Positions 20 to 61,010 of a stretch of DNA of 64,000 nt are shown piece after piece. Made by a program: the position numbers and the translations under genes. The stretch's first letter is position 1. Every line of letters starts with the position of its first letter. The notes below the pieces were generated by a model, which saw only the letters and a program-made list of their open reading frames with translations, searched no databases and was not told the origin of the DNA. The stretch is from Minisyncoccota bacterium (GTDB taxonomy: Bacteria; Patescibacteriota; Minisyncoccia; Phycocordibacterales; Phycocordibacteraceae), in the NCBI GenBank assembly GCA_018062445.1, contig JAGOSG010000003.1, positions 29,842 through 93,841 on the forward strand. The letters are read 5' to 3'.

Positions 20-60
20 TTAGGGGACAAAGTTAGCTTTCGACCCCTCGCTTTTAGGGA
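20..60. repeat. family B (TTAGGG/GTTTAGGG-type) motif copy
   Basis: ttaggggacaaagttagctttcgacccctcgcttttagggagg. Confidence 0.4.
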
Positions 61-74
61 GGAGTTGGAGGTTA

Positions 75-112
75 GAAGCTGGAAGCCGACAGCTGAAACC
101 TGACAGCTACTC
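75..112. repeat. family A intergenic repeat copy
   Basis: gaagctggaagccgacagctgaaacctgacagctactc; 3' of virB4. Confidence 0.6.
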
Positions 113-1918
113 AGATGCTTCCCTCTTCTGTTGGGCTATTGCAAGCAGTTGAGATGGGTCTGAGGTGATTATTTGGTCTTCAGTGTAGGATGCAATTATT
201 TTTATGGCGACATGTTTGAGCCCCGCGAAGAAAATCCCCTCACCCACATCAGATTCAAGCAGAAGGTATTTTTCTTCCTCCGTGAGGTTGAATGTTTTTT
301 GTACGGCATCTATGGATGTTGGTGATTGCTTCAAAAGAAGTTGGATTGATGAGTTAGTAAGCATCGGCAGTCCGTAGGGTGATTTTAGGAAGTCCTCAAC
401 ATCTTGAGTAATGGTAGCGAGACCAAGATAGTATTTTCTTCCGCGCTTTGCCATTCCGTAAAGGAACGCTGCAGTATCTTCTGATTTCATCATCCACCAC
501 GCCTCATCAATAACAAGAAGTCGTTTGCGCAAATCTTTTCTCACCGCATTCCAAATGAAGTGCGTAATGATGTACATCGCAATCGTTTTCAGTTCATCCT
601 CCATGTTCCGAACCGAGAACGCAACGAACTTTTTGTTGATGTCCACATTGGTTGGTCGATTAATAAAGCCAGACCATGTGCCCTTGGTGTATTTTGTGAT
701 TCTCTGAACTAAAGACTCACTTCCTTCCATGCCAGCAAGTACCAATTCGAAGTCAGAAAGGAGCGGTGGTTCCATGTTGGTGAAGTCGTTCGCACCAGTA
801 ATGTCTTTGAGTGCATATGTTTCTGTAATTGCGCGGTCAATAATTGCATCTTCTTCAGGAGTAAGACCTCCGAGCATTAAGCGAAATAGTCCCACGAGGT
901 TGATGATGTTTGAGCGGAGAATATCAGCTGGCGATTCATCTTCGCGAGGCACAGGCAAATCAAAAGGATTGATGCGATTTTCTGATGAGAGCGAGATATT
1001 GAAAAATCTTCCACCCACCGCATTTGCAAGATATTCATACTCGCTTTCAGGGTCTATAACAATGACCTCCGTGTCGAACATCAATGACCTCAAGATTTCA
1101 AGTTTTGTGCCGTATGATTTTCCTGAACCTGATTTTGCAAAGGTTACCGAATTGTAGTTTTCAAGTGAAAATCTATCAAAAAGAATCAATGATGAGTTGT
1201 GTCTGTTTATGCCGTAGAGAATTCCTTTATCGCTCGTAAGGTCGAAGGAAATAAACGGGAAGAAACTTGAGAGTGGTGCAGAATTCATCTTTGAATTAAC
1301 CGCCAGTTGGTCATCCCCTATTGGTATGACACTCTTGAATCCTTGTTCTTGTTGGAACAGGGCGGGTTTTATGTAGACAAGCTTTGAGTCAAGAATTGAG
1401 CGCATTTCTGCTTCAGTTTTGTCCAATTCGTCTTGGTTTGTGCCGTAAATTGAGATATAGAGGCCTACATCAAATACTCGTTCTTGCGCTTGTTGGAGTT
1501 GATTTCTGAGTTGCTCGATGTCTTGGTAGGCCGTGTCGAGCATTGGATCCCGCACCATCCCTTTTTCTTGACGGGTCATGATTTGGCTCTGTACCTCAGC
1601 AACTTTTTTCTGAAACTTCCGGAGAATTGCCGCAGTGTCTACAGGATGAATGAATATAGAAATATCGAGCACTCGGTCACGATTAATGATTGGTGCGAAC
1701 CATGTTCCCGATAGGAATCGAGGATACGAAATTACGTAGAATGTGCGCACCAACTTGTCGCCCAAGTTCATTTCACGCGGGGTAATTTTCAGAGCTGATG
1801 GTGCAATGATGTCTGCAAAGTCGAGTTTCGCAGCTTCATAAATATCCTTAGGTAAAAAAGGAGTTAGGGCGTCCTTATTTTTCCCAGCGTTACCTAAAAA
1901 TGTATCGAAGATTCCCAT
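107..1918 (-). CDS. virB4: VirB4/TrbE/TraE-family conjugal-transfer ATPase, C-terminal ATPase portion of a split gene
   Basis: Walker A FAKSGSGKSY, Walker B LLVIDEAWWMM, CagE/TrbE/VirB-type N-region; 603 aa. Confidence 0.8.
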   Translation of the reverse strand: MGIFDTFLGNAGKNKDALTPFLPKDIYEAAKLDFADIIAPSALKITPREMNLGDKLVRTFYVISYPRFLSGTWFAPIINRDRVLDISIFIHPVDTAAILRKFQKKVAEVQSQIMTRQEKGMVRDPMLDTAYQDIEQLRNQLQQAQERVFDVGLYISIYGTNQDELDKTEAEMRSILDSKLVYIKPALFQQEQGFKSVIPIGDDQLAVNSKMNSAPLSSFFPFISFDLTSDKGILYGINRHNSSLILFDRFSLENYNSVTFAKSGSGKSYGTKLEILRSLMFDTEVIVIDPESEYEYLANAVGGRFFNISLSSENRINPFDLPVPREDESPADILRSNIINLVGLFRLMLGGLTPEEDAIIDRAITETYALKDITGANDFTNMEPPLLSDFELVLAGMEGSESLVQRITKYTKGTWSGFINRPTNVDINKKFVAFSVRNMEDELKTIAMYIITHFIWNAVRKDLRKRLLVIDEAWWMMKSEDTAAFLYGMAKRGRKYYLGLATITQDVEDFLKSPYGLPMLTNSSIQLLLKQSPTSIDAVQKTFNLTEEEKYLLLESDVGEGIFFAGLKHVAIKIIASYTEDQIITSDPSQLLAIAQQKREASE

Positions 1919-1920
1919 AA

Positions 1921-2592
1921 TTATATAAATGGTGCGTTAGTTTGATCCACAACGATTGGTTTTTCCAATTCCCCAGGATTGAACTCTTTGTAGAGAAGTT
2001 CTATGACCTCTTCAGTGCCGAGAGGAACAGTTCGCACACCTGTTCGGGCCAACCCTTGTTCCACTACCCCCATTCTCTGCTCTAACTGTGTACGGTGTTC
2101 CTCAAAACCAATAGCATTTTCATCTCTCGATGACAGATTTGTCTTCCCAAACACTTTATTTTGCACTGCCTTTTTTATATCAAGAGCTGGTGGAGAGTAT
2201 GGAACAACAATAAAAAAATGTTTACTCATAATGTTCGCTCTCTCAATGAATGTTTTGATGAACTCTATATATTCGCGCACCTGTATTTTCATCAGTTCCT
2301 CTGTCTGCGCTTTAAGTCGTTCCTCCAGAAGTGCTATGTACGGCCTGATATCGAGTTTTCGAGATTGTATGAAAAACTGAACACTGAAATCAAGCGAATT
2401 CATAAAGCTCTGAAATTGCGAGAGTATGGCGTTTTGTTCGTCCTCTGACTTAAGTGCAAAGTTAATACTTGAAGCAAGCATTACACCGACGAGTGTGCCG
2501 CCTTTCATTACCATCACGCCCCCACGGACTTCCTTTACTGGAACGAAGTCCTGAGCCGCTTTTGTTTTTTTTGTTTTTTCGTCACCAGACAT
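1921..2592 (-). CDS. VirB4 N-terminal domain encoded as a separate ORF (split/frameshifted VirB4)
   Basis: DFVPVKEVRGG..INFALKSEDEQ..SVQF matches Gram-positive VirB4 (PrgJ/TcpF-type) N-termini; stop TAA then 2 nt then ATG of the ATPase ORF. Confidence 0.6.
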   Translation of the reverse strand: MSGDEKTKKTKAAQDFVPVKEVRGGVMVMKGGTLVGVMLASSINFALKSEDEQNAILSQFQSFMNSLDFSVQFFIQSRKLDIRPYIALLEERLKAQTEELMKIQVREYIEFIKTFIERANIMSKHFFIVVPYSPPALDIKKAVQNKVFGKTNLSSRDENAIGFEEHRTQLEQRMGVVEQGLARTGVRTVPLGTEEVIELLYKEFNPGELEKPIVVDQTNAPFI

Positions 2593-2600
2593 AATGTAAT

Positions 2601-2635
2601 AAGCTTCCAGCTGTCAGGTTCCGGCTTTCAGCTTC
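2601..2635. repeat. family A repeat, left inverted repeat flanking the four-helix-bundle gene
   Basis: aagcttccagctgtcaggttccggctttcagcttc; encodes the last residues of the ORF. Confidence 0.6.
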
Positions 2636-2997
2636 TCAATCATTGAAGCAAGCATTCGCCCGATCTCTTTTAGGGAAGCGATACAATCATTATACTCCAC
2701 CTCTTTGATGAATCTTAGATCTTTTGCAATTTCAATTTGTGTTTCCAGCTCACAAAGAGAGCCAACTGACATATAAAGAAATTGCACGAAATCTTTCCTG
2801 CTTCTGCGTCCCCTTCCCTCCGCGATATTCGATGGTATGGATATGGCAGACCGTCTCATCTGGGATGTCAGCCCAAACTTTTCTTCAGTCGGAAAAGAAT
2901 TTGTTATTTTATATAAGCGAATTACGAAGTCTTTTGATTTTTGCCACACCACTAAGTCACGATACGAGAGTATTTTTTGATTTTGAGTTGATGCCAT
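2614..2997 (-). CDS. four-helix-bundle protein (23S rRNA intervening-sequence protein family)
   Basis: YRDLVVWQKS..FP..E.FGLTSQ.RRSAISIPSNIAEG.GR signature; flanked by inverted repeats. Confidence 0.8.
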   Translation of the reverse strand: MASTQNQKILSYRDLVVWQKSKDFVIRLYKITNSFPTEEKFGLTSQMRRSAISIPSNIAEGRGRRSRKDFVQFLYMSVGSLCELETQIEIAKDLRFIKEVEYNDCIASLKEIGRMLASMIEKLKAGT

Positions 2998-3005
2998 TGA
3001 AGTTA

Positions 3006-3040
3006 AAAAGCTGGAAGCTGACAGCTGGAACCTGAAACCT
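3006..3040. repeat. family A repeat, right inverted repeat flanking the four-helix-bundle gene
   Basis: aaaagctggaagctgacagctggaacctgaaacct; inverted relative to 2601-2635. Confidence 0.6.
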
Positions 3041-3479
3041 ACCCCCGCTGTTTCTTGTCACTATACATACTCTCCTTTATATCCAAGCTCCACGCTAAGT
3101 CTTTAATTTTGTTTGAAGTGGCTGAGGGGGCATATTTTGCTGGATCTTCAGCGGGTGTTTGCCCAGGTAGAACAATTTCGTCAGGGAGGACAGTTTTTGA
3201 TTGTTTCTTTTCCCAAATATAGAGTTTTGTGCGAAAAAGGTACTGAAAGCCAGATTCGAGAGCGTTTATAAGTGGTCGGTCATTAATTTTATAGAATGCG
3301 AGCCCAGCACCCAACAGTGCGATTGGTCCACCAATAACTATTGCCAACCAGTGAGGCATAACAAACCAGAGGGCTACGAGAAACCCTCCTCCCCCGACGA
3401 GGTATATAAACTGTACTGCGGTCAGAGGGCCGAAAATTTTGTCTTCAACTTCAACGAATTGAGGAACTTGGAATTGCAT
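3039..3479 (-). CDS. PrgI/VirB3-like conjugation membrane protein
   Basis: N-terminus MQFQVPQFVEVEDKIFGPLTAVQF typical of PrgI family; two TM helices; sits upstream of VirB4. Confidence 0.6.
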   Translation of the reverse strand: MQFQVPQFVEVEDKIFGPLTAVQFIYLVGGGGFLVALWFVMPHWLAIVIGGPIALLGAGLAFYKINDRPLINALESGFQYLFRTKLYIWEKKQSKTVLPDEIVLPGQTPAEDPAKYAPSATSNKIKDLAWSLDIKESMYSDKKQRG

Positions 3480-3486
3480 ACTAATA

Positions 3487-3600
3487 AGAGTATAGCGTTT
3501 AGTAGTTAGCGTCTAGTGTTTTTCATCTAGTCATGGCTTCTAAAAACTTTTATAGCCATCGAAGTTAATGGAGTATTTCTTTAGAATTTCCCTAAACTCT
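3487..3600. repeat. family B motif pair in inverted orientation upstream of the PrgI-like gene
   Basis: tatagcgtttagtagttagcgtctagtg ... ccctaaactctatccactaacccc. Confidence 0.45.
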
Positions 3601-3622
3601 ATCCACTAACCCCTTTCCACTG

Positions 3623-4396
3623 TTACTCTACTGGCTCTCGGTACGGGTCAACCCCTCCTTTGTACGCTGGTTTTGGCGCTTCACTTACCTGTGGTTTTAT
3701 CGATGTGGGGTTTTGGGTTGCGGATGGAGTGCTATCTGTGGTTACTCCTTCTAATTTTTCTTCTGAGATTGGCGTTACCGGTATATCCGTTTCAGTTTTT
3801 TTAGTTTCAGGAGATGCATCTGCAACTAGTCCTAGTTTTTCCGCAACAATGCTTACTGAGGGTGTGTTTACGATTTCTTTTAATGTGACCGATGCTGTTG
3901 CGAGGCGTTTTTTTTCAGCTTCAGCCTCTGCTATTTCTTCAGGGTCAACCCAGCCTTCGATTTCTTCTTTTTCTGCGAGAGCGTCTAATTCTGCATCGGT
4001 CGGCATTCTGGTAGCTTCAGCTCCCTCTTGTGGCTTCGGGCCGAACTCTTCAGCATCCCACCCAGGCTCTGGTTCCATGATATTTTCACGGAGACGGCGA
4101 CTCGCCTCTTTGAAGATGCGGTCATTGAGATCATTTACTATCTCACGCATGGTTGCACTGCTAAGCTCAGGAAGAGCTTGATGGAGGTTGGTTTCAAGTG
4201 CCGACATAGGCTCTAGACCAAGCAGGGTAAGATTGGCAACCTTGCTCATTAAACTACCTTGCCATAAGTTAAGGTGGTTTTTTTTGATTAATCCGTCGTA
4301 TATTTCTGTGATTGTGTTCGAGCTTAAAAAGTCGCGAACTGGTTTCGGCAGTTTATCTTTTGCTTCCGCCCTCTCTTCTTTGGAGTATGTTTTCAT
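3623..4396 (-). CDS. hypothetical acidic protein, low-complexity C-terminus
   Basis: ORF in T4SS-like cluster; no recognisable domain. Confidence 0.45.
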   Translation of the reverse strand: MKTYSKEERAEAKDKLPKPVRDFLSSNTITEIYDGLIKKNHLNLWQGSLMSKVANLTLLGLEPMSALETNLHQALPELSSATMREIVNDLNDRIFKEASRRLRENIMEPEPGWDAEEFGPKPQEGAEATRMPTDAELDALAEKEEIEGWVDPEEIAEAEAEKKRLATASVTLKEIVNTPSVSIVAEKLGLVADASPETKKTETDIPVTPISEEKLEGVTTDSTPSATQNPTSIKPQVSEAPKPAYKGGVDPYREPVE

Positions 4397-4402
4397 ATAT
4401 TG

Positions 4403-7400
4403 TTAACTTCCAAAAGTATCCGTGTAAGCCGTCTCTTGTTCAGGAGTTAAGTGTTTCTGTTTACGCATTTCATCTAACCATGCTCGTGCTGAGTCACGTA
4501 TTGTACCCCCTGCTTTTACAGCGCGAATGAGGCCCCAGATAATAGCTCTCATTTTTGCTGGTGCAATGTACGTGTCTGTTTCGATGGCCTTTAGCTGCCT
4601 ACTGTCGAGTTCCTGAATGAAGTCTCTGCTTCCTAACATTTCTTCGGGCAATTCTTTCACAAGTTCAGCTGCTTCTGCTGGTGGAAGGTTATGGATGAGT
4701 GGTGCAATATCTTCGATGACCGTCGGCGTTTCAGGCACAGGAGGTGTCTCAGGGCTTTCTGGTGCTGCGCCTTCAGTCTGTATAGTAGTTGGCGCTGAAC
4801 CCGAAGAAGTTGCTCGACTTCGTAGTGCACTTGCAATACGAGATCGTGGTGTTTCTTCAAATTCGATTTGCCTCTCGATTGGCTGTCGGCTCACGGCAGA
4901 TGCATTCCTCTCCGCTATAGTCTCTATCTCGCTTGTTCGTCCTAGTCGGGACTCAACTTCTTCAAGTGACGCCATACCAAGACGTCTTCGTTCCTCGTTT
5001 ACCCTCTTTCGCATTTCGTCTGTGACCTCGTATTTTGATTGGCCGTCAGGGTTAGTGAGAATCCACTTTATGGCACTCTCATCACCGTAGACCAACATAC
5101 TGACACCCTGGTCTTCCATCCATACCGTATCTTTTGCAAGTCCGTATGCTTGACCAGCGTTAATGTATTTACCCATAAGCCGCTTACCCAAATCTTCCTG
5201 CTTCATTTCGTCTTGGATTTCGTTTGCCGCCTTTCCTTTGGCATATTTGAAGAAGTTATCTTCGGCGGTCTTTCTTTTTTCTGCCGCTCTGCGCACGTCT
5301 TGGTTTCGGCGGATCTTTCTCAGTTGCGCTTCCTGATCGCTCGTTATGATGCCCTTCTCGGTTTGTTCGCGCATTCGTGTATCAAACTCTTTGTCTGAGA
5401 GAGAGTCACCGTTTTCATCAAATGCATTTCTGGAAAGGAGATTTCGTTCCTGTTCACTCAGTCCCCTAGAAATGCTATTGCCTTGTTCATCTTTGTCTTG
5501 GATTGTGATTGTGTTGAAGACAGCGCTCGCTTCATCGTCAATTTTGAAGTTTATGTTTCCACGACGACGCTTGAGTGCACGCAACTTTCGTTTCTTTCCG
5601 CTCGCGATTCTAGAGTTTTTTTGTAGCTGTGTGTAAACCCCACTTGTTATTGCATCGTTGAATATTTCATTTTCCTGTAGACCCATTTCGAGACCTGGGT
5701 TTGACGTAAAGAAGTCAATTAATTCGTCAGCGGAGACGTTTTTCTTAAGCTCCTCATGGAGCCAGTAGCGTTTATCATTATACTCATCGCTGTATCTAAG
5801 TATTTTGCCCGCTGCCTTAGCTTCGTCCGTTAGTCTTCCATCAGCGGTGAGGTATTTTTCGTCTCCTTTCTTTGTGTCGACCGCATCCACGACTCTTGCT
5901 TCAAAGGCTTGGGCTGAAGTCATAACACCACCGAGGCGAGCCATTCGTATCTCGTCTCTTGTTTCACGGTCTATTGTCTTGTCCTTAACGATTTCGAGGG
6001 ACTGTTCTGTGGTGAGTGCTCGTGCCAACCTTTTGAACTCTGCTTTGTTACGTTTGTACTCTTCCTTAATGAGGTCAGTCGAGACATCGGCAAATGGCTG
6101 TTTCAGTTGATCAGTTGCATCGGCCATGGTGAGCATGATTTTCTCTCCATTCTTATCTACTGCCCCCGTATCGAACTTCTCCGTTCGCTTTAAGCGGTCG
6201 TTGTACGCGAATTTATTTTCCCAACCCCAGTTTCCGTCCTTATCTTTTACCCAACGTCTTCCTTCCCAGAGCGGTACGCCGTTCTTATCGATCTTGTTTC
6301 CATTTTGGTCCACCTTATCTCCGTCTTGCTTTCGCTTTGCTGTCCACTCCGCCCTCTCCTCGTCGTTCATCTTGTGCCAGTTTTTAGGAAGACCTGCTTT
6401 CACGAGGTCTTCCTTGCTGGATTTTCCGGTTATCTTTATGTCGTCTTCACCTTTCGCCACTGCCTTGTCGAACGCAGCTTTTACTGTAGCTTCTTGATCG
6501 AGGTGACCTCCTTTTTTTAGAGCATCCTCCTTTTTCTTGACGTAGTCGCTGACATTCGCGAGTTTGATAGTGCGTTGTTCTCTTTGCTCCTTCAAGTCCC
6601 CATAACTTGTCTTGCTACCAAACTTTGCATCTTTAAGAAACTTAGTGCCTTTCTGTATGCCACGGTCAAGAGTGGCGAGTCCTGGAACTTGGTCGAGGCG
6701 TCTTCCGCCAAGGAATCCCCATTCTCTTGCTGCAATTTTCTCTTCGTACCAGTGTCCAAGTTTATCGCCACCAAATCTCCCGATAGTTTCTCGCGCTGTC
6801 ATAGCCCCAACGTTAGTAGTAACCCAATTTGAAGCCTTGTATACATCGGTAAGGCGTTTTGCAGCTTCACTCATACCTTTAGCGATTTTGAGTGACTGCA
6901 ACATAAAGATTACTGCCACCATGAAAGTGAGTAGTGTGCCAATGAGGTTGGGACTTTCTCCGCTGAATGCGCCACTGGAATTATCAAGAATAGTGAGAGA
7001 AAAACCAACAAGAAGAAAGTACACGGGGGCAAAAAATGCCTGACTGAAAAGCGCTTCCCACCACTCCTTGGCGTATCTATTTATTTGCGGGATGGCAAGA
7101 CCGGCTATGCCGATTGGTGAGGTGATGAGAATGAGAATCAATGCGACGAATCGTCCCAATAATAGTGTGATAGCAGACAGAAATACAAATATTGTGATAC
7201 CAATGACTACGATAGCCAAAAGATCTTGCACGATTGCCATCCACTGGGAATCTTGTTTGATATCCCCAACTTTTTCATCTGCCAGATATGCCGCTATGTT
7301 GTGATTGTTGGTCCGGATGACTCTGTCAAAACGAGAAACAATGGTACAGCTCTCCCTACAATTTTCTGTGGATATGGTTGCCTTGTAGATTGCTGTAGCG

Positions 7401-8011
7401 AGAAAGTTAGAAGAATCAATAACAGCTCCTGCGAAAAAGAAACTAAAGTTTACAAGAAGAGCTGCAATGATGAGTCGCACCAAAAGTTTTTGGGCGTTTA
7501 TTGCTGCAAGATGCAGAATGGTACCAATGGCAGTTGCAATAAGGCCACCAATTATAGCGAGGTTTGCAAGGTCACGCATAATACGCCACGCGATTTGTAT
7601 ACCAACAGCGTCTGATGAGGTGACAAAGTGCCCCATGTTGACGACTAGCTGCTCCACAACGAAATTGAAAAAGCTTCCTACGAGGAAAAGAATAAATGTC
7701 ATTATTTGCACCAGTAGCCAGGTGATTATATGGAGGATGCCCCCAATAAGCTCTCCAAGAGGGTCTATCACGGCATCTTTTATTGCTTCCGCTATCCTGG
7801 CACCAGCCGCACCTTGTTCTGCTGAGTAGGTGGCTTCTGCAGTTTGTTGAGCTGTCGCAGCTTCAGGTGCAACAGTTGCAAGACCGCCAGCCGCCCCGCT
7901 TGCTCCAGGCTCCCCAGCAAATGCTAGATGTGAAGGCACCACAAACCCAGCGAGAGTAATGGTGAGTAAAAGAATTAAAAAAACTTTCTTCATGTCTAAT
8001 AGGTTCTGCAT
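4403..8011 (-). CDS. VirB6/TrbL-like polytopic membrane protein with ~800-aa charged coiled-coil-rich C-terminal extension
   Basis: Signal-like N-terminus, ~6-8 TM helices in the first 400 aa, then K/E/D/R-rich hydrophilic region; 1202 aa. Confidence 0.6.
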   Translation of the reverse strand: MQNLLDMKKVFLILLLTITLAGFVVPSHLAFAGEPGASGAAGGLATVAPEAATAQQTAEATYSAEQGAAGARIAEAIKDAVIDPLGELIGGILHIITWLLVQIMTFILFLVGSFFNFVVEQLVVNMGHFVTSSDAVGIQIAWRIMRDLANLAIIGGLIATAIGTILHLAAINAQKLLVRLIIAALLVNFSFFFAGAVIDSSNFLATAIYKATISTENCRESCTIVSRFDRVIRTNNHNIAAYLADEKVGDIKQDSQWMAIVQDLLAIVVIGITIFVFLSAITLLLGRFVALILILITSPIGIAGLAIPQINRYAKEWWEALFSQAFFAPVYFLLVGFSLTILDNSSGAFSGESPNLIGTLLTFMVAVIFMLQSLKIAKGMSEAAKRLTDVYKASNWVTTNVGAMTARETIGRFGGDKLGHWYEEKIAAREWGFLGGRRLDQVPGLATLDRGIQKGTKFLKDAKFGSKTSYGDLKEQREQRTIKLANVSDYVKKKEDALKKGGHLDQEATVKAAFDKAVAKGEDDIKITGKSSKEDLVKAGLPKNWHKMNDEERAEWTAKRKQDGDKVDQNGNKIDKNGVPLWEGRRWVKDKDGNWGWENKFAYNDRLKRTEKFDTGAVDKNGEKIMLTMADATDQLKQPFADVSTDLIKEEYKRNKAEFKRLARALTTEQSLEIVKDKTIDRETRDEIRMARLGGVMTSAQAFEARVVDAVDTKKGDEKYLTADGRLTDEAKAAGKILRYSDEYNDKRYWLHEELKKNVSADELIDFFTSNPGLEMGLQENEIFNDAITSGVYTQLQKNSRIASGKKRKLRALKRRRGNINFKIDDEASAVFNTITIQDKDEQGNSISRGLSEQERNLLSRNAFDENGDSLSDKEFDTRMREQTEKGIITSDQEAQLRKIRRNQDVRRAAEKRKTAEDNFFKYAKGKAANEIQDEMKQEDLGKRLMGKYINAGQAYGLAKDTVWMEDQGVSMLVYGDESAIKWILTNPDGQSKYEVTDEMRKRVNEERRRLGMASLEEVESRLGRTSEIETIAERNASAVSRQPIERQIEFEETPRSRIASALRSRATSSGSAPTTIQTEGAAPESPETPPVPETPTVIEDIAPLIHNLPPAEAAELVKELPEEMLGSRDFIQELDSRQLKAIETDTYIAPAKMRAIIWGLIRAVKAGGTIRDSARAWLDEMRKQKHLTPEQETAYTDTFGS

Positions 8012-10020
8012 TGGGCTAGCTCTGTAGTTGCGGTTGCGGTCATTTCTGCGAGCAATGTTTTAGATGCATCACGGTCATTGGTAAGAGAAGCGAGGTTATT
8101 TTGCGTATGTATAGGTCCATATGTTTTGAGAGAGTTGAATGCCTCAGAGAGCGCGTTAATTTCAGTAGAAGTTTCAGCACTCCCTACCTCCGATTGCAGT
8201 GCTTCGAGTGATGAAGAGGTGCTGTCTGAATTATCAAACGCAACTGAAGCTAATTCTATTTGGGGAGTGAGCGTAGTATGAACCGTTGAAGATGCCTGGT
8301 TCATTTTTGTGGTTGCCGTTGCAGAATCAATACCCAATCCTCCGCCCTTAGTGACGAGAGCTAGGTAGCAAGCTTGCACAGAAACATACCCGCTCTTTGT
8401 GTTCTCTAGATTAAGAATCATGTCGGCAAGAGTGGCTTGGTATGCGTATTCGATCACCAGCGATTTTTCTATGTTGTCGTTTAAGGTAAGTTTTGTTTGG
8501 TTTGCAGCACTGGCGCCGGTGTTTTGAGTTAGGTTATCAAGATATGAACCATTTCCCGTTGAGCTTTTATTAGACAGCCCAACTAAGCCTTTCAAGCTTG
8601 TGAGAGCCTGCTGACCGAGCTGTGCAAATAAAGAATTTACCAAGCTTCCAATATCATTTGCATTTTGTTGTTGACGCGCACCACTGAGCTGTGTGTCAGT
8701 GTGTACATCTTTTTGGTCAACCCCCGGCGTTGCAACTGCGTATGTTTGTAAGACTAAACATTCTTCCTCCGTGCCTGCCGTACTCCCGTCGCTACAAGTT
8801 ACTTTCGGATAGAACCCCTGACCATCACGGAGCTGTCGTTCTCTGTCGGCGGCAGCCAAAGTGTTTCTCTCCTGGATATACTTTTGGGTAATCATGGTGA
8901 GGCCTTCTGCTGTGCAACCATTCGTCAGAGTAATTGCTAGTCGTGTAGTACGTCTTTCGTCATCTGTTGAACCACATTGTGTAATATCTTTCATACACGC
9001 AACAACATCCACTTTCTCTGCTGGAGGGCATGCTACTTGCTCCGCAAAACTTGTTTTTAAATTAGTATTAGCCACTACATTTCTTTGAACTACAGGAACA
9101 AGAGATGGGACAATTCCACTGTTTGTTAGTAGATTATCAACGACATTTCTAGTGATTATGTCGTTGGTTGTGTGAGTGATTTCTACCAAAGATCTATTTT
9201 CAAAGATTGGCCCACCGTCTCTACCTGTGGTTGTGTATCTGGTATTTTCTTCAGCGAGTCGTGCTGTTGCGTCTATACGAGTTTTGCGTACTAAGACATT
9301 TTGTATACAGGTTACTTCAAGTTGCGTATCTTGGTCAGCTTGAATTTGTTTTGTGTTCCCTTGGATTTTCTGGTTAACATCATGGATTTTTTGAGTGTTG
9401 CTCTGCACCGTGCTGTCGCTCACTGGCACGGCACCCATTCCTCCGCCTATCAAACCTAATGCGCCTCCGGCGAGACCTCCGAGGCCACCACTTCCACCGA
9501 GCAAGCCCCCAATAGAGCCACCAATCCCACTGCTACTCCCGCCAAGTAATCCACTCACGGCGCCACCTATACTGCTTCCGCTACTTCCACCGAGTAAGTT
9601 TCCAACTACATTTCCCAAGCCTGAGCTACTGAGAATACTGCTTATGTTTCCATTACTACCGAGGAGACTTGAAATTATTTGGCCCGTCTGACTTCCGCCG
9701 GTAATGCTGCTGATAATTCCACTTATGTTACCGCCCTGCGCACCACTTAAAAGAGAACTGAGGTTACCTCCTTGGAATAATGATCCAAGTATTCCCGATA
9801 TTGAGCCAAGAGAACCTTGTGAGTTTGATTTACATCCTGCGACTTCAGCAGATTTACTGCTGTCGGTATCTGTGCCTGATGAAGAGAGGTTAATGTCGTT
9901 CGGCAATCCTGGGAGTAGTGTTGGATTGGTATCAATAGTTGTTGCTTCTATTGTCTCGCCAGCCGATACAGACAATGGAGCAAGAGCAAGTAACAAAATT
10001 ATGAGAATTATTTTTTTCAT
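7996..10020 (-). CDS. secreted Gly/Ser-rich repeat protein with Cys-containing C-terminal region (T4SS-associated surface protein?)
   Basis: Signal peptide MKKIILIILLLALAPLSVSA; GGLLGGS repeat tract; 16-nt overlap with upstream gene. Confidence 0.55.
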   Translation of the reverse strand: MKKIILIILLLALAPLSVSAGETIEATTIDTNPTLLPGLPNDINLSSSGTDTDSSKSAEVAGCKSNSQGSLGSISGILGSLFQGGNLSSLLSGAQGGNISGIISSITGGSQTGQIISSLLGSNGNISSILSSSGLGNVVGNLLGGSSGSSIGGAVSGLLGGSSSGIGGSIGGLLGGSGGLGGLAGGALGLIGGGMGAVPVSDSTVQSNTQKIHDVNQKIQGNTKQIQADQDTQLEVTCIQNVLVRKTRIDATARLAEENTRYTTTGRDGGPIFENRSLVEITHTTNDIITRNVVDNLLTNSGIVPSLVPVVQRNVVANTNLKTSFAEQVACPPAEKVDVVACMKDITQCGSTDDERRTTRLAITLTNGCTAEGLTMITQKYIQERNTLAAADRERQLRDGQGFYPKVTCSDGSTAGTEEECLVLQTYAVATPGVDQKDVHTDTQLSGARQQQNANDIGSLVNSLFAQLGQQALTSLKGLVGLSNKSSTGNGSYLDNLTQNTGASAANQTKLTLNDNIEKSLVIEYAYQATLADMILNLENTKSGYVSVQACYLALVTKGGGLGIDSATATTKMNQASSTVHTTLTPQIELASVAFDNSDSTSSSLEALQSEVGSAETSTEINALSEAFNSLKTYGPIHTQNNLASLTNDRDASKTLLAEMTATATTELAQCRTY

Positions 10021-10757
10021 GTTTTATTTTGAAATGCCATCACCGCTAAGAGTAGGGTATCCACACTCCCCTCAGTGTAGCTCTTTGCTTTATTAAATGT
10101 GTCCACATCGGAAAGAGCATCTATAGGATCGCCCTTCCATTTCGCCATGTTCTCAACGGCTCTTGCTAATGCCCCAACACTTTTCACCACTTCTAGGTGT
10201 TCTGTAGCGAGTGCTTTCGGCACCTCCATTATTAGCAGCGATGCTCCTATCTTTTTATATAAATCAGCCGTTGACTGAAGTGCGGGTGTTCCATAAATAT
10301 TGTCATTCATGACACTTTGTGTGAAAACCGTCACTTCATATTTTTTAACCTGACTGGCTTGACTCAAAATGACCACCAGTAGTTTGGAGTATGTGTCTAG
10401 CGAGGCCGTGTCACTGATATTTAAATCAACAAGATTGATGTTCGGCACTATAGCGGGACTCACCACTCTTTCTTTTACTAGCGAGGCAATGATGACGTCG
10501 CGCTCTCTTGCGCTGTAGTTTGTGTTTTCTGCAAGTTTTGCATACAGGTCCTCCGAAAGAGATCCTGTGAGGCTGTTATCTGAGGATTGTGTCACAGTAC
10601 TTGAAACAGATTGCCAACCTGTCATTGTTTCCCCACCAGGGATTACTGTTATTCTTTTTGGTTGATGTAGAAAGGAATACGCAGAAGATCCACCTATAAC
10701 AACGACTGCAAATATCACTGCCCAAAAAGCACCCCCCCATTTATTTTGGGTTTCCAT
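10017..10757 (-). CDS. bitopic membrane protein, possible VirB8-like component
   Basis: Short cytoplasmic N-terminus, single TM (AFWAVIFAVVVIGG), ~210-aa external domain; 4-nt overlap with downstream gene. Confidence 0.45.
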   Translation of the reverse strand: METQNKWGGAFWAVIFAVVVIGGSSAYSFLHQPKRITVIPGGETMTGWQSVSSTVTQSSDNSLTGSLSEDLYAKLAENTNYSARERDVIIASLVKERVVSPAIVPNINLVDLNISDTASLDTYSKLLVVILSQASQVKKYEVTVFTQSVMNDNIYGTPALQSTADLYKKIGASLLIMEVPKALATEHLEVVKSVGALARAVENMAKWKGDPIDALSDVDTFNKAKSYTEGSVDTLLLAVMAFQNKT

Positions 10758-47580: not shown

Positions 47581-47605
47581 TCTGCGATGTTATTCTTACC
47601 AAAGA

Positions 47606-50621: not shown

Positions 50622-50623
50622 AT

Positions 50624-50656
50624 GAGGTGTCAGCTTTCAGCTTTCAGCTTTCAGGG
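50624..50656. repeat. family A repeat copy (triple GCTTTCA)
   Basis: gaggtgtcagctttcagctttcagctttcaggg; between pilC stop and the pilin start. Confidence 0.6.
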
Positions 50657-51146: not shown

Positions 51147-51788
51147 ATGACACATATGATCAAGAAACATTCACAATCACGCATTCTGCTCGCAAGGCGA
51201 GCATGGCAAAAATCTACAACAGGGATGAGTTTGATAGAGGTTTTGGTGACCCTCGCGGTCGTTTCATTGATTATGGTGAGTGCATCAAATTCGGTATTGG
51301 CGCTCTACAAAACAAACAACACAGGGACTCGCGCCCTAACGCAAATTAGCAGCGCTCGGTCTGCGCTCACGGCATTGATGACGGACTTGCGGAGCGTGGC
51401 GTATGGCAATGGCGGTTCGTATCCAATTGTGTCGATGTCTGCTTCGTCATTAACTTTTTTTAGTAACATTCCAAACAGCACTGGAGCTACGCGTTTTCAA
51501 TATCAAATTAATGGAACAACACTTTCTCGGAGCCAAGTGAGCGCAGGTACTCCGCCAACATACAGTGGTGTTCCAGTGAGTGAGTCGCTAGTCACATACA
51601 TACGGAGCGGCGCTGGCTCTGCGGCACTTTTCCGCTATTACGATCGCAACGGTATTGAAGTTACTGATATGAATCGAGTAACTGATGTAGCGTCAATACT
51701 GGTTTCTATTGATGTACTTGCTCCGGGAATGAGTACACCGTTTATACTTACTGCCACTACCACGCTTCGTAATTTAAAAACACCATGA
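51147..51788 (+). CDS. prepilin-type N-terminal domain protein (minor pilin)
   Basis: TTG|MSLIEVLVTLAVVSLIM with E+5. Confidence 0.7.
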   Translation: MTHMIKKHSQSRILLARRAWQKSTTGMSLIEVLVTLAVVSLIMVSASNSVLALYKTNNTGTRALTQISSARSALTALMTDLRSVAYGNGGSYPIVSMSASSLTFFSNIPNSTGATRFQYQINGTTLSRSQVSAGTPPTYSGVPVSESLVTYIRSGAGSAALFRYYDRNGIEVTDMNRVTDVASILVSIDVLAPGMSTPFILTATTTLRNLKTP

Positions 51789-53011
51789 AGAAGGTTCCAG
51801 GTTCCTACTCCAAAAGTGCGGGAGGGTTTATGACCGTTTTTGTACTTATTGCTTCTGCCGTTTTTTTCTTTCTGCTCTCTGATTTTATGAGTGCGCTCAC
51901 ACTTGAGAGAACTAAGGAGCGCTTTGGGTCCGAGACTGACAAAGCATTCAGTATTTCTGAGGCAGGCCTTGAATACTATCGATGGCATTTCGCAGAATTT
52001 CCTGCCGATGTACAAGATGGTACTGGTTCGTCGGGGCCATATGTACATGCGGTTTTGGATCCAGAAAGCGGAGCTACTGTCGGGAATTTTTCTCTCGCTA
52101 TCTCAGGCATTACTTCCTGCGGGGTGCTCACCTCTGCAACCGTACGTTCGACTGGTTGGGCATTAGAAAATGCGTCACACACAAAAACACTTATTGCTCA
52201 GTATGGGACGGAGACGTTGGCGGCATCAACAAGTCCAGCAAAGTCTGATGGGGCAGTGATTAATACCACCCTCACAAACTTAAAAACATATGCACAAACA
52301 TCGGGGGTATATCTTGCGCCTGCATCGGGTGGAGCATATGGATACAAAATTGTTTTCAAGTCGAACGGGACATTTGATGCGAGTCCGGTGACTGCAGTTA
52401 CTGAGATAATGGGATATTCAGATGATGAAGGTTGGGAGGAAGAAAACACAATAATTACTTCAATTGGCGCCACCATAAATTACGCCATACCTGCAGGATG
52501 TCCCGTTGTCTTTGTAGAAGATTCTGTTTGGCTTGAGGGGGTCGTGTCTGGAAAGGTTACATTCGCCGCTGCAAATATGGCGAGCCCCAGTATTAAGCCA
52601 GACATTATTATTACTGGAAATATTACCTATGCGCATGCATATGATGATGGGTTGACTGCAATTGCTGAGCGATCAGTATTGATTTCACTCCAATCACCCG
52701 ATGTGTTGCAGATGAATGGTGTTTTCGTGGCAGGCACTGGCCATTTTGGGCGACATCGCTATGATTCCTCGGGTACGCACGCTGTTCCTACTGGCCTGCA
52801 GTCATATGTACTTCGTTCCACGCTAAATACCTTCGGTACATTTGCATCGCCTGGTACTGTTGAAACAAAATGGACATCCTCTGGCGCGTTTATTTCGGGC
52901 TATAGCACTCGGACAGATGTCCACGATGCTCTCTTGGCACAACTGCCACCACCATTCACTCCAGCAATAGCCAGTGGATTTCGTATTATTGATTGGCGTA
53001 CGCAGGACTAG
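51785..53011 (+). CDS. putative minor pilin / PilX-GspK-like pilus protein
   Basis: N-terminal hydrophobic segment AGG|FMTVFVLIASAVFFFLL without E+5; 4-nt overlap with the preceding pilin gene. Confidence 0.45.
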   Translation: MKKVPGSYSKSAGGFMTVFVLIASAVFFFLLSDFMSALTLERTKERFGSETDKAFSISEAGLEYYRWHFAEFPADVQDGTGSSGPYVHAVLDPESGATVGNFSLAISGITSCGVLTSATVRSTGWALENASHTKTLIAQYGTETLAASTSPAKSDGAVINTTLTNLKTYAQTSGVYLAPASGGAYGYKIVFKSNGTFDASPVTAVTEIMGYSDDEGWEEENTIITSIGATINYAIPAGCPVVFVEDSVWLEGVVSGKVTFAAANMASPSIKPDIIITGNITYAHAYDDGLTAIAERSVLISLQSPDVLQMNGVFVAGTGHFGRHRYDSSGTHAVPTGLQSYVLRSTLNTFGTFASPGTVETKWTSSGAFISGYSTRTDVHDALLAQLPPPFTPAIASGFRIIDWRTQD

Positions 53012-53012
53012 C

Positions 53013-53090
53013 TACTAGTAGGGGTTAGGGTTTAGAGATTAGCGTTTAGGGAAAATTCCAATTCAAAGCTCTTTCCTAAACCCTTCTCAA
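53013..53090. repeat. family B motifs in both orientations upstream of tpiA
   Basis: ggggttagggtttagagattagcgtttaggg ... ctttcctaaaccc. Confidence 0.5.
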
Positions 53091-53108
53091 ACATGTTACG
53101 ATTTCTCA

Positions 53109-53861
53109 ATGAAGAAATTGATTGTGGGGAATTGGAAACTCTATGTGAGTACTCCTGCCGAAGGGAAAAAGCTTATTCGGGACATTGATAAAAAATTGCC
53201 ACGTGGACTGAAAGTAGAAGTGGCTCTTTGCCCTCAGGTGTCGCTCGCGCCACTTTTGAAGAGTAGTTACGGCGGAAAGCGTATAGCCTTTGGTACTCAG
53301 GATGTTTTTTTCGAAGAGGGCGGGGCTCACACGGGGCAGACTTCACCGAAGGCTCTCGTTTCGTCGGGAATTAAATATGTGATTATTGGGCATGCTGAGC
53401 GACGTCGAGAGGGAGATACCGACGACATTGTTGCAAAGAAAGCGATCACTGCAATTAAGGCAAAATTACATCCCGTTATTTGTGTTGGGGAGCCTACGCG
53501 AGACACTGAAGGTGCGTATCTCACCTACTTAACTAACAACGTAGTGTCTTCACTCTCGCGTATTAATGCAGTAGACGCTTCGAAATTTACGATAGCGTAT
53601 GATCCACTTTGGGCGATTGGTGCCACGGAGGCTCCATCTCCTCGTATTGTTGCAGAGGCAGTGATGTTTATCCGCAAGACCATCGCAGATATGTGGGGAC
53701 GAGAGAGCGCGCTTAAGGTGCGCATCATCTATGGGGGATCAGTCAATGCAGAAAGTGCCGCATTGTTTGCGGCAACTCCCGGCATACAAGGACTTCTTCC
53801 TGGGCGTGCAAGTGTTAATGCTGAAGAATTTACAAATATTGTTCGCGCATTTCAAAAATAA
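53109..53861 (+). CDS. tpiA: triosephosphate isomerase
   Basis: GNWK, IIGHAERR, YGGSV motifs. Confidence 0.9.
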   Translation: MKKLIVGNWKLYVSTPAEGKKLIRDIDKKLPRGLKVEVALCPQVSLAPLLKSSYGGKRIAFGTQDVFFEEGGAHTGQTSPKALVSSGIKYVIIGHAERRREGDTDDIVAKKAITAIKAKLHPVICVGEPTRDTEGAYLTYLTNNVVSSLSRINAVDASKFTIAYDPLWAIGATEAPSPRIVAEAVMFIRKTIADMWGRESALKVRIIYGGSVNAESAALFAATPGIQGLLPGRASVNAEEFTNIVRAFQK

Positions 53862-59537: not shown

Positions 59538-59578
59538 ATGGGTGAGGGTATAGCGTTTAGGGGATAGGGTTTAGGGAA
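59538..59578. repeat. family B leader motif upstream of sodA
   Basis: atgggtgagggtatagcgtttaggggatagggtttaggg. Confidence 0.5.
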
Positions 59579-59623
59579 ACATCTTCTGAGTAGCTACTCT
59601 AGCCTTGGTGCCATTATATCATT

Positions 59624-60466
59624 GTGGGTATGGCACGCATTTTTTTGATCGGGCTACTCATTTTTGGGAACATTTTTGTCTGGACGGTTCCTATTCCCCA
59701 CGGACTCAAAGTTTCTTTTTTAAATATTGGGCAAGGGGATTCTATTTTTATAGAAGGTCCGACAGGCATTCAAATGCTTGTTGATGCCGGCCCCCCTGAT
59801 AAATCAGTGCTTAGAGAATTAGGAAGTGTGATGCCTATGTTTGATCGCTCCATTGATGCTGTTGTTGAGACGCATCCAGACCAAGATCATCTTGGGGGTA
59901 TTCCTGATGTGTTTGAGCGCTACAGGGTGGGAGCATTTTTGGAACCAGGAATTCCAAACGACACGAAAGCGACGAAAGCAACTGTTGTCGCAATCAAAAA
60001 GTCGGGAGTAAAAAATGTTGTTGCTAGACGTGGCATGCGACTCATCTTAGGTGGTGGTGCGTATGCAGATATTCTTTTCCCAGATAGAGATGTATCCAAG
60101 ATTGAAACAAACACGGGCTCCATCGTCATGCGTGTTGTGTATGGAAACACATCATTTTTATTAAATGGGGACGCTCCGCAGGTTATTGAAAAGTATTTAA
60201 TTTCGATTGATGGTAAAAATCTCCAGAGCACTATTTTGAAAGCCGGGCACCATGGTTCAAAAAACTCCAGTGCACCTGAATTTGTGAAAGTAGTTAATCC
60301 AGAGTACGGAATATTTTCTCGTGGATGCGATAATAAGTACGGGCACCCAGCACCTAGGGTTGTGGATCTATTTCAGAGTCTCGATATTCCTATTCTTGAT
60401 ACCTGCAAGAATGGCAGAGTCACTTTCCTATCAGATGGCCGTACTCTCAAGGTTGCCAAATACTAA
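59624..60466 (+). CDS. MBL-fold metallo-hydrolase (ComEC C-terminal beta-lactamase-like domain as separate gene)
   Basis: N-terminal TM; HPDQDH, GD, AGHHGS motifs typical of the ComEC MBL domain. Confidence 0.75.
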   Translation: MGMARIFLIGLLIFGNIFVWTVPIPHGLKVSFLNIGQGDSIFIEGPTGIQMLVDAGPPDKSVLRELGSVMPMFDRSIDAVVETHPDQDHLGGIPDVFERYRVGAFLEPGIPNDTKATKATVVAIKKSGVKNVVARRGMRLILGGGAYADILFPDRDVSKIETNTGSIVMRVVYGNTSFLLNGDAPQVIEKYLISIDGKNLQSTILKAGHHGSKNSSAPEFVKVVNPEYGIFSRGCDNKYGHPAPRVVDLFQSLDIPILDTCKNGRVTFLSDGRTLKVAKY

Positions 60467-60680
60467 CGGATGTTTAGGCAGGAACGCAAATCACACACTC
60501 ATTTCTTTTGTGCGAGAACATATATGCGGGACGTTCTTTGCTGCACAAATTGCAGACTCTCACTACCCACTCTTCAAGGAGTGAGCGGCTTCTGTTTGGT
60601 GGAAATCTTTTTTCTGACATATGTTTCACAATAAAAAAACTCCCTAACGTAAACGGCGTACCGTCTACCTTAAAGAGTGG

Positions 60681-60923
60681 TTAAATAATATTAGCTTTTT
60701 TGAGTGTCTTAAAAGCACCACGCTTCGCAATAGTCTTTACAGCACGAGCTGAAAGAAGAAGCGAGATATGCTTATTAAGCTCAGGCACAAAGATTTTGTG
60801 CTTTTGTAGGTTTGCCTTACGGCGCACCTTGCCGCATGGGTTGTACTGCGTCGCACGAGTGCGATTTGAATACCTCCCTCCGACGAGAGATGATTTACCA
60901 GTTACAGCGCATGCCTTAGCCAT
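60681..60923 (-). CDS. rpmB: 50S ribosomal protein L28
   Basis: MAKACAVTGK..; 80 aa. Confidence 0.9.
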   Translation of the reverse strand: MAKACAVTGKSSLVGGRYSNRTRATQYNPCGKVRRKANLQKHKIFVPELNKHISLLLSARAVKTIAKRGAFKTLKKANII

Positions 60924-60971
60924 AGTTTTTAGAGGATACCATCCTAAAAATGAAAAGTAAATCCCACGCTC

Positions 60972-61010
60972 AGAGTTTAGTTATTAGCCACTAGGGTTTA
61001 GGGACGATTC
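60972..61010. repeat. family B leader motif upstream of rpmB
   Basis: gagtttagttattagccactagggtttagggacg. Confidence 0.45.

Follow-up and report, generated by a model that had tools for sequence, protein, structure and literature searches.

Five-unit heptad arrays at gene boundaries of a Minisyncoccota genome are built like the arms of PF05635 cassettes

The intergenic spacers in a 64,000-nt stretch of a Minisyncoccota bacterium genome (GenBank assembly GCA_018062445.1, contig JAGOSG010000003.1, positions 29,842 to 93,841; hereafter the window) carry arrays of tandem heptads, typically five degenerate units or about 35 nt long. These arrays are built like the arms that bracket cassettes encoding PF05635 four-helix-bundle proteins. 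Here, their anatomy, statistics and turnover between strains are described together with their association with the PF05635 cassettes. Intergenic heptamer repeats and elements of the intervening sequence (IVS) type are both known already, and the new aspect is the proposed tie of solo arrays to PF05635 cassettes, for which no statement was found in the literature searched. Heptamer repeats such as the short tandemly repeated repetitive (STRR) sequences, TAACTGA, GGGAATC and the Geobacter pairs have been reported repeatedly, and there is no agreement on their origin or function. A minimal genome from the candidate phyla radiation (CPR) with arrays in about one third of its spacers (14 of the 38 spacers of at least 30 nt) offers three handles on this problem: the strict anatomy, the very fast turnover and the link to PF05635. 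If this link is true, it would provide a testable nucleic-acid partner for a four-helix-bundle family that is among the largest without a known function outside diversity-generating retroelements, and it would explain the origin of orphan heptamer repeats.

The arrays were noticed in a first-pass annotation as a motif, CCCTAAACCCT, preceding many unrelated start codons in the coding sense, and this observation is confirmed. Allowing up to two mismatches, the window contains 36 matches, compared to 11.3 +/- 3.6 in shuffled sequences, and none of 100 shuffles reaches 36. Although non-genic DNA makes up only 11.8 % of the window, 22 of these matches are located there (binomial p = 3e-12). All eight genes named as carrying the motif upstream, namely those for a PrgI-like protein, NYN, ppa, nusA, pilB, tpiA, sodA and rpmB, do so, often with 0-3 nt between motif and ATG. 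The coding-sense orientation holds upstream of starts, where 15 matches within 70 nt are in coding sense and 6 are antisense, four of the latter being the sodA array as seen from the divergent neighbor gene; the same arrays also occur in inverted orientation just after stop codons. The junction described as identical in NYN and ppa comprises 16 common bases (CTAAAACCTAATTTAT), but the NYN ATG is displaced by 2 nt. Two further aspects of the initial description were not borne out. The matches are not isolated leader boxes, as they lie in a 7-nt register inside arrays of five degenerate heptads, and their coordinates advance by 7 (e.g. 45482, 45489, 45496, 45503 and 59545, 59552, 59559, 59566). 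Nor do they form a distinct family B, which proved to be a variant of a heptad-array class that also covers the second family of the first-pass annotation (AGCTGAA).

Tandem Repeats Finder reported arrays of period 7 and period 14 with two unit types, TAGGGTT and AAAGCTG. The self-match of intergenic DNA is 0.293 at lag 7 and 0.292 at lag 14 compared to about 0.26 at other lags, and coding DNA shows no such excess. Since generic lag-7 window detectors missed degenerate units, in-phase runs were used instead, and arrays were called in intergenic DNA wherever AG, or CT for the opposite strand, recurred with a spacing of exactly 7 nt. The run lengths in the window peak sharply at five units, with 13 runs of five, two of six and one of four, while shuffled sequences yield 0.03 runs of five. 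The same peak at five is found in the compared loci L007, L008 and L009. On the CT strand, the unit consensus is CT-R-A-H-M-N, which corresponds to N4-YAG on the other strand; G is nearly absent at unit positions 5 and 6 (at most 4 %) and occurs mainly at positions 3 and 7. Within arrays, a 14-nt super-period is visible, as in CTAAACS CTATMCC or CTGGAAC CTGACAC. A common unit matrix describes both unit types, and CTAAACC (family B) and CTGAAAG or CTGACAC (family A) are therefore regarded as variants of one class; the NYN array mixes the two.

As RNA, solo CT-sense arrays are unstructured, with a minimum free energy (MFE) of 0. For spacers with paired arms, the predicted fold is an imperfect hairpin with energies of -24 to -41 kcal/mol and z-scores between -0.8 and -2.7, and the loops between the arms are unique to each locus, with none shared between loci. 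Several explanations for this anatomy were considered and rejected. A stop-codon insulator acting in all frames is not indicated, as 42-67 of 78-90 units contain a stop, with no asymmetry between the strands. Selection for an RNA hairpin on the sense strand via G.U pairs is not supported, as only 4 of 10 spacers have the better fold in the sense strand and substitutions between strains are not compensatory. A closed loop between the 5' and 3' ends of an mRNA, formed by arrays flanking one gene, is contradicted by the PrgI-like and NYN genes, whose flanking arrays differ in family. The units also bear a resemblance to the NAG-N4 RNA binding of HutP/TRAP-like proteins and to the CTR sites of DnaG primase.

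The arrays follow a single rule of placement and orientation. The window and L007-L009 together have 41 arrays, and in 33 of them no more than 25 nt separate the 3' end of the CT strand from the boundary of an open reading frame (ORF), a start in 19 cases and a stop in 14. Arrays preceding a start are CT-sense and those following a stop are AG-sense, so that the YAG strand always runs 5' to 3' from the ORF boundary, be it a stop, a start or a core promoter, inward to the spacer. Two arrays in one spacer therefore form an inverted repeat of fixed handedness. Such pairs are found in the co-directional spacers 3482/3592, 19074/19123 and 53015/53069 and in the divergent spacer 62556/62597. Both arms within a spacer always share the unit family, whereas arrays on the two sides of one gene do not. 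Distances between array end and ATG are 0, 1, 2, 3, 15, 16, 22 and 43 nt, and 11 of the 19 start-directed arrays leave only 0-3 nt to the ATG, with a narrow heptad phase.

Arrays of the same construction bracket PF05635 genes. At 2593-3045, the window contains a cassette in which a PF05635/PF22296 gene (2614-2997, minus strand), encoding a four-helix-bundle protein of the 23S rRNA IVS type (S23p, bAvd-like), lies in the loop between two family A arms. The upstream arm (2998-3045, plus strand) comprises five units, is AG-sense with respect to the gene and begins at the stop of the PrgI-like gene. The CT-sense downstream arm (2593-2640, minus strand) overlaps the final codons of the PF05635 gene, and 9 nt separate its end from the TraC-like ATG. 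Both the MFE and the centroid fold of the cassette pair the arms in a closing stem of roughly 35-40 bp. The protein has relatives in the Protein Data Bank with five chains each (2GSC, 2RLD). A homolog in locus L065 (53 % identical) is likewise bracketed by inverted arrays, as are homologs in Andersenbacteria, in Dojkabacteria and in Capnocytophaga canimorsus, where the cassette sits between sdhA and sdhB.

This association was surveyed in a sample of 62 unrelated PF05635 genes drawn from metagenomes of many environments, 58 of which have a tandem repeat of period 7 or 8 within 70 nt. The flanking arrays number 89, with a period of 7 in 49 and of 8 in 34 of them, mostly with 3.5-5.5 copies. A strict periodicity score was positive for 29 of 62 upstream and 34 of 62 downstream flanks (one of the latter with period 10), compared to 2 of 427 control segments and 17 period-7/8 matches in 1320 other Patescibacteria intergenic flanks. 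Aligning upstream flanks with the reverse complement of their downstream flanks gave a median score of 15, compared to 7 for mismatched pairs, and G exceeds C in the upstream arm in 53 of the 62 loci. In the relatives of the window, the spacers of the type IV secretion system (T4SS)-like cluster are hot spots of gain, loss and replacement of S23p cassettes between strains (L096-L098, L324, L325). L324 and L325 have a second cassette, located between the genes for the TraC-like and TraG-like proteins, which in the window are separated by only 2 nt. The protein of this cassette shares 78 % identity with that of the window, and the arms belong to family A. The PrgI-TraC site of L324 is occupied by a different S23p gene with different arms (AATGAGC). 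The C-terminal tails of the TraC-like proteins next to the insertion site are entirely different among the three versions.

Turnover of the arrays is fast. The period-7 intergenic signal is limited to this genus-level clade: it is present in the window, L007 and L009, weak in L008, and absent from about 70 other Patescibacteria loci, in agreement with the earlier suggestion of a lineage-specific motif. In the orthologous spacers of L008 and L009, position and orientation of the arrays are kept while the heptad family has changed; in the nusA-ppa spacer, for example, the window and L007 have family B, whereas the units are ACAGTTT/ACAGCTA for L008 and CAGGTGT/TAGGTTT for L009. Between close strains, arrays are dispensable, being lost, shortened by multiples of 7 nt or swapped for another family where the flanking genes are 99-100 % identical. 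Upstream of tpiA, strains are 99.95 % identical from 15 nt before the ATG onward, yet the whole spacer differs, with a family A inverted repeat, (AGCTTCC)5 ... (GAAAGCT)n, replacing the family B pair. The breakpoints of this swap are the upstream stop codon and the extended -10. Strains with identical L28 differ in the neighboring spacers by 14-nt and 21-nt indels, array loss and a 30-nt insert, and other unit families (TTGAATC, TTGGAAT) also occur beside these genes. A variant of the dksA-like spacer has 5 substitutions in about 90 nt of arms compared to none in 111 nt of downstream flank. The Logan contigs L003, L004 and L094 start or stop inside heptad arrays. As contigs end within them, the arrays break short-read assemblies and may be underrepresented in metagenome-assembled genomes.

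The absence of classical Shine-Dalgarno sequences from the motif-bearing leaders is real, but it is a property of the whole window rather than of these leaders: GGAG, GAGG or AGGA is found at -18 to -4 in only 6 of 60 genes. In 13 of 60 genes, the first base of a TAnnnT hexamer is exactly at -12, compared to 1.2 expected per position, and in 25 of 60 it is at -15 to -11. The -10 at -12 is often of the extended TGnTAnnnT type, and five genes have an extended -10 there. Examples of a -10 at this position are 41377-42186 (TTGACA-17-TATAAT-GGAAAT-ATG), 53094-53111, 19056-19073, 62540-62556 and 62612-62629. Judging from these promoter positions, the organism appears to be largely leaderless, and this gene organization would account for the loss of Shine-Dalgarno sequences in all genes, with or without arrays. 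A leaderless organization without Shine-Dalgarno sequences also bears on gene calling in this clade. Four genes (tpiA, M50 protease, dksA-like and spoU-like) have their extended -10 between array and ATG, and the array would therefore be outside that transcript. The nusA gene has a strong promoter 96 nt upstream (TTGACA-17-TATACT), and its array is probably within the transcribed leader.

Neither the properties of a Shine-Dalgarno sequence nor those of a sigma-70 promoter element fit the arrays. The pyrimidine-rich 16S tail (CCUCC) is conserved, and a Shine-Dalgarno sequence is its purine-rich complement at a spacing of about 5-10 nt from the start. The gene-sense strand of the arrays is G-poor and cannot pair with this tail, and the spacing is 0 to 43 nt, so the array is no Shine-Dalgarno analog. 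More generally, it is only in this clade that the bases upstream of starts are poor in G (0.16, compared to 0.22 for C). The fixed distance to the -10 and the transcription start that a -35 or UP element would show is lacking; arrays overlap the -10 or end 1-30 nt upstream of it, and the heptad phase of the -10 relative to the array varies. A promoter scan showed no enrichment, with 24 found and 29 expected. CTGACA-like units were also considered as -35 boxes and rejected since their spacing to the -10 is inconsistent and the promoters are mostly of the extended -10 type.

By analogy with IVS elements, we consider the chances about even that the arrays are the arms of selfish, IVS-type hairpin elements whose paired arms form RNase III-sensitive stems that separate cistrons. 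Such elements would exist as full copies with a gene in the loop, as gene-less miniatures and as solo arms, would turn over fast, and would occupy precisely the gap from a stop codon to the start or promoter that follows. In a transcribed spacer with two arms, these would pair into a long stem, which RNase III may cut as it does in the Coxiella 23S rRNA IVS, thereby separating the neighboring cistrons. The cut would leave a G-poor, unstructured CT arm beside the downstream AUG. There it would be at least harmless and could be helpful for initiation independent of a Shine-Dalgarno sequence; on leadered or internal genes such as nusA and ppa, the G-poor tract possibly contributes to this kind of initiation.

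Several observations weigh against this interpretation. Solo arms (e.g. at ppa, NYN, sodA and the protease gene) account for about half of those in the window and are unable to form a stem, although they are as well formed as the paired ones and persist across strains. In divergent spacers with leaderless promoters, the arms would not be transcribed. The z-scores of the hairpins given above are modest, the sense RNA does not fold with better energy than the antisense RNA, and the strain substitutions in the dksA-like arms are not compensatory. For this organism, a limited search found no S23p gene with family B arms and only family A arms are linked to a cassette; B-like arms were seen only at the unrelated metagenome loci L282 and L290. 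An RNase III gene is absent from the window. Finally, a stem alone needs neither tandem periodicity nor a fixed number of five units. Since periodicity and unit number are thus not explained by the stem, something else would have to be at work, either a binding protein or a repeat-generating mechanism. For a periodic binder, pentameric S23p is the obvious candidate.

The alternatives differ in which of these features they explain. A start-proximal expression signal, as proposed in the first-pass annotation and by MacGregor for TAACTGA, would be a leader or standby site for translation independent of a Shine-Dalgarno sequence, bound by S1 or Csp proteins, or else a promoter upstream element. 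We consider this unlikely, and the reading as a translation signal is only partly supported. Its lineage specificity, the 19 start-directed arrays with their narrow phase at the ATG, the lack of structure in CT arrays where Shine-Dalgarno motifs are absent, the clade-only G-poor region upstream of starts and the nusA array in a leader after a strong promoter all fit such a signal, as does the similar placement of TAACTGA repeats in Beggiatoaceae (PMC4679880). In contrast, 14 like arrays abut stops in inverse orientation, and arrays are lost or reduced to two units in strains with identical proteins. The extended -10 between array and ATG in the four genes named above, a distance to ATG or -10 that varies from 0 to 43 nt, and families that are free to differ at orthologous sites also speak against it. 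Moreover, there is no tie to high expression, as S15, HU, tig and clpP have no arrays. An array length of 35 nt equals the upstream reach of the 30S footprint, which would favor a role in initiation. The sharp peak at five units would be accommodated by protein-binding sites, with a pentameric S23p/Avd-like protein placing one subunit on each heptad, or else by a global DNA-binding regulator or an omega-type heptad binder. The five chains of 2GSC and 2RLD, the reported S23p homopentamer (PMC4990558), the 3.5-5.5 copies typical of PF05635-flanking arms and the well-formed solo arms are consistent with this. In Geobacter metallireducens, eight pairs of five heptads were taken as sites of a global regulator (PMC2700814). 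In addition, the arm family tracks the S23p variant, the 78 % identical protein having family A arms and the divergent paralog AATGAGC, but this co-variation is also expected from co-inheritance within a cassette. Since the units are very diverse within one genome (CTAAACC, CTGAAAG, CTAGCAC), with only CT-R and the G-poor positions constant and thus little for a protein to recognize specifically, and since Coxiella S23p is probably not made (PMC4990558), we regard binding sites as improbable, too.

A non-functional origin would treat the arrays as mutational products, either microsatellites from heptamer slippage or filler from break repair, tolerated only in dispensable spacer DNA and hence ending precisely where constraint sets in. 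The indels in multiples of 7 nt, the perfect (AGCTTCC)5 beside decayed arrays, the losses and the boundaries exactly at stops and extended -10 elements are what such a process would leave behind, and the YAG rule on both sides would be expected if two 3' ends were extended and then joined. Heptamers have also been described as the commonest long simple repeats in bacteria (Mrazek, as cited in PMC4679880). Open-ended slippage should not, however, yield 13 five-unit arrays and one of four units, nor should it preserve the orientation at orthologous sites across species despite family turnover, and it does not predict the specific association with PF05635 genes, about 40-fold across phyla. It is therefore quite improbable. 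True telomere-like repeats are very improbable, and so are regulatory repeats forming G-quadruplexes, as proposed for the Xanthomonas (GGGAATC) and Nostoc (GGGGAYT) heptamers. Placement and orientation are exactly as reported by Rehm et al. 2015 (PMC4692102), and family B includes TAGGGTT and TAGGGGT units. On the other hand, family A (CAGCTTT, CAGGTGT) and other families lack G-tracts while family A has an identical anatomy, and family B seldom has four intact GGG runs, being interrupted by units such as TAGAGAT, TAGCGTT and TAGTGAT. The likeness to the plant telomere repeat (TTTAGGG) is coincidental, as had been assumed, since the arrays are internal, five units long, degenerate and present in both orientations.

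Returning to hairpin elements of the IVS type, a wider generalization can be put forward only tentatively. Five-unit heptad or octad arrays could be the cognate cis sites of pentameric S23p/Avd-like proteins, with mobile IVS cassettes, a widespread class overlooked so far, inserting exactly at ORF boundaries. Orphan repeats such as Xanthomonas GGGAATC, the Nostoc STRR type, Beggiatoa TAACTGA, the Geobacter pairs and the arrays described here might then be non-autonomous or solo derivatives of them.

The individual arrays illustrate the placement rule (strand in brackets). Family B arrays of five CT-sense units end 2 nt before the PrgI-like ATG at 3479 (3482-3516, minus), 2 nt before the sodA ATG (59540-59574, minus), 22 nt before the pilB ATG (47549-47583, plus) and, upstream of a conserved promoter/leader, 43 nt before the rpmB ATG (60967-61001, minus). 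Another fills the 46-nt nusA-ppa spacer and ends 0 nt from the ppa ATG (45477-45511, minus). At nusA, three CT-sense family B units, five in L007, lie downstream of the TTGACA-17-TATACT promoter and 14 nt before the ATG (46785-46805, minus). Five CT-sense family A units end 1 nt before the ATG of a trypsin-like protease (37696-37730, minus) and of a methyltransferase (61736-61770, minus), and, immediately preceding the extended -10 TGTTAGGAT, 15 nt before the ATG of the DksA/TraR-like gene (19074-19108, minus). The mixed A/B array of NYN (23419-23453, minus), with the CT-sense units CTAGTTC, CTAGAAG, CTAGCAC, CTAAAAC and CTAATTT, ends 2 nt before its ATG.

Among the arrays following stops, the family A array AGAAGCT GGAAGCC GACAGCT GAAACCT GACAG (77-108, plus) abuts the stop of the TraG/VirB4-like gene at 107-1918(-). 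Five AG-sense family B units (3592-3626, plus) abut the stop of 3623-4396(-) and are the inverted partner of 3482-3516. Six AG-sense family A units (19123-19164, plus) overlap the stop of 19151-20455(-) and pair with 19074-19108 across a 14-nt loop, while six others (22750-22791, plus) begin 1 nt past the NYN stop without a partner arm. A five-unit AG-sense family A array (50620-50654, minus) lies between the pilC stop and the true pilin start (50659). Three nucleotides past the stop of 51785-53011, five AG-sense family B units (53015-53049, minus) face a CT-sense partner arm that has two to three family B units (CCTAAACCCT; 53069-53084, plus) and lies upstream of the tpiA extended -10 TGTTACGAT. 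In the divergent spacer, four family A units that are CT-sense for the SpoU-like gene (62556-62583, minus), upstream of the extended -10 TGCTACACT, have their inverted partner in three family A units that are CT-sense for the M50 protease gene (62597-62614, plus).

A family B remnant of three units (CACTAAA, CTCTAGT, CACTAA; 26202-26281, plus) is broken by two copies of a double-hairpin mini-element of about 30 nt, GTGATCCCTTCGGATC-CGATGARGCATCG-CC. This mini-element was found only within or directly beside heptad arrays, at 26222-26281 of the window (two tandem copies), L007 around 5004, L008 around 5459, L093 around 852, L101 around 346 and L108 around 2544. The array between the SpoU and methyltransferase genes has its middle part replaced by this mini-element in L101 and L108. 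The mini-element resembles a mobile insert of very small size that targets the arrays and is comparable to the small dispersed repeats of cyanobacteria.

The window belongs to a metagenome-assembled genome of the Parcubacteria/Paceibacteria (CPR) and has a GC content of 44 %. Across 5.1 kb, it is 100 % identical to GCA_017992865.1 (JAGONU01), and it is syntenic with VMHB01000002.1 of 'Parcubacteria group bacterium Greene0714_7', with 87-98 % identity in the aligned segments. L007 and L009 are its closest relatives among the compared loci. A conjugation/T4SS-like cluster at 107-10757 encodes TraG/VirB4-like, TraC-like and PrgI-like proteins, a 1202-aa TrbL-like protein and unknown proteins. Further genes include PNPase, NYN, S15, tRNAs, RNase Y, ClpP, trigger factor, ppa, nusA, pilBC with pilins, tpiA-pgk, recJ, comEC, sodA and rpmB, the last being the minus-strand ORF 60681-60923 (Pfam L28); no rRNA genes are located within the window. 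Between NYN and rpsO, 430 nt (23417-23846) contain no genes and no Rfam match at the gathering threshold, and an unannotated small gene or RNA may be located there. Downstream of both tRNA-Gly-GCC (28245-28418) and tRNA-Gly-TCC (37860-38090) lies a segment of about 170-220 nt that includes GGGAATCGAA(A/G)CGC and ends in a second copy of the tRNA 3' end (…CGATTCCCGATACCCGCACC / …CGATTCCCTTATCCCGCACC), which resembles a small element integrated at a tRNA 3' end. At the second of these sites, L007 has a different and longer insert (658 nt vs 422 nt). L007 also has an insert of about 310 nt (around 3380-3690) in the ortholog of the tpiA start at window position 53109, directly after the conserved TGTTACGATTTCTCAATGAA promoter/start. 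It bears the terminal inverted repeats ATCCCGTTAGAAAT..GCGAATGC / GCATTCGC..ATTTCTAACGGGAT, and the tpiA frame picks up again at a new ATG downstream of it.

Compared with known repeat classes, the arrays share with repetitive extragenic palindromic (REP) sequences, bacterial interspersed mosaic elements (BIME) and miniature inverted-repeat transposable elements (MITE) the short extragenic inverted pairs between co-directional genes, the capacity to form hairpins and possible effects on mRNA ends. In contrast to these, the arms are tandem repeats and not palindromes, single arms have an MFE of 0, and no Y1 transposase of the REP-associated (RAYT) type is among the annotated window genes. An origin as MITE was rejected since the loops are locus-unique and the filled and empty TraC/TraG sites show no target-site duplication.

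The TAACTGA repeats of marine Beggiatoaceae, cyanobacteria and Bacteroidetes (MacGregor 2015, PMC4679880) and the cyanobacterial STRR heptamers resemble the arrays in placement, with 2-6 mostly intergenic copies in forward orientation that end a few nucleotides before starts lacking a ribosome-binding site. TAACTGA also has a CTGA core and forward-sense stop codons in all frames. It differs in being one exact unit, mostly in 2-3 copies, with almost no inverted pairs and no post-stop arrays reported; only the CTRA core is common to the units described here (CTAAACC, CTGAAAG and others). This core is widespread. Among the (CTRANNN)5 matches listed for IMG/VR viral contigs (L112-L191) are many unrelated long arrays of up to about 19 units, including CTGACCC, CTAACCA/CTAACAA, CTGATAA (= TAACTGA) and CTAAACC x15, in contigs of very different GC content, and L188, L114, L174 and L187 each contain many dispersed arrays.

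Geobacter metallireducens carries eight opposite-strand pairs with five tandem MTYCTGA heptads per site (PMC2700814). They have the CTGA core and a similar arrangement, in which the first site of a pair follows the 3' end of a gene and the second precedes the 5' end of the adjacent gene (e.g. proB-proA, moaA-mosC). Unlike here, there is one unit family with 16 sites per genome, read as sites for IHF, HU-type proteins or a global regulator, and that study included no comparative or strain data.

A match in both placement and orientation is provided by the Xanthomonas GGGAATC and Nostoc GGGGAYT repeats, which Rehm et al. 2015 (PMC4692102) read as G-quadruplexes. As in that study, the heptamer arrays are enriched in non-coding DNA and have a small preferred copy number, which is four in that study and five in the window. 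In the 50 bp preceding ORFs, the antisense strand is the G-rich one, and in the 50 bp following stops it is the sense strand, a rule followed here by 33 of 41 arrays; many convergent pairs lie between co-directional genes. Position is conserved among close relatives while length and sequence vary. The differences are that the host here is a reduced CPR genome and that several unrelated unit families occur, most of them without G-tracts: four consecutive G-tracts are lacking both in family A, which has no GGG, and in the interrupted family B. For this reason, the G-quadruplex is not the unifying property. No link to PF05635 cassettes was drawn by Rehm et al.

Such a link leads to the IVS of Coxiella, Leptospira and other bacteria. 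The Coxiella 23S rRNA IVS is a selfish element whose terminal inverted repeats form a stem; RNase III cuts it within tandem heptamers (GACAGAT) that precede the ORF and vary from 2 to 4 among strains, the cut being at the first of them. The ORF encodes S23p, which is reported to be a homopentamer and, according to Warrier et al. 2016, is probably not even made (PMC4990558). In contrast to this location in 23S rRNA, at helix 25 or 45, all copies described here lie between protein-coding genes, where excision by RNase III would be an analogy, and gene-less copies and solo arms are more numerous than full copies. What is common to both is the architecture. The PF05635 ORF at 2593-3045 lies in the loop of a stem formed by terminal inverted repeats, of which the gene-less spacers retain the arms, and, as in Coxiella, the 5' arm contains tandem heptamers that have a CAG core and differ in number from strain to strain.

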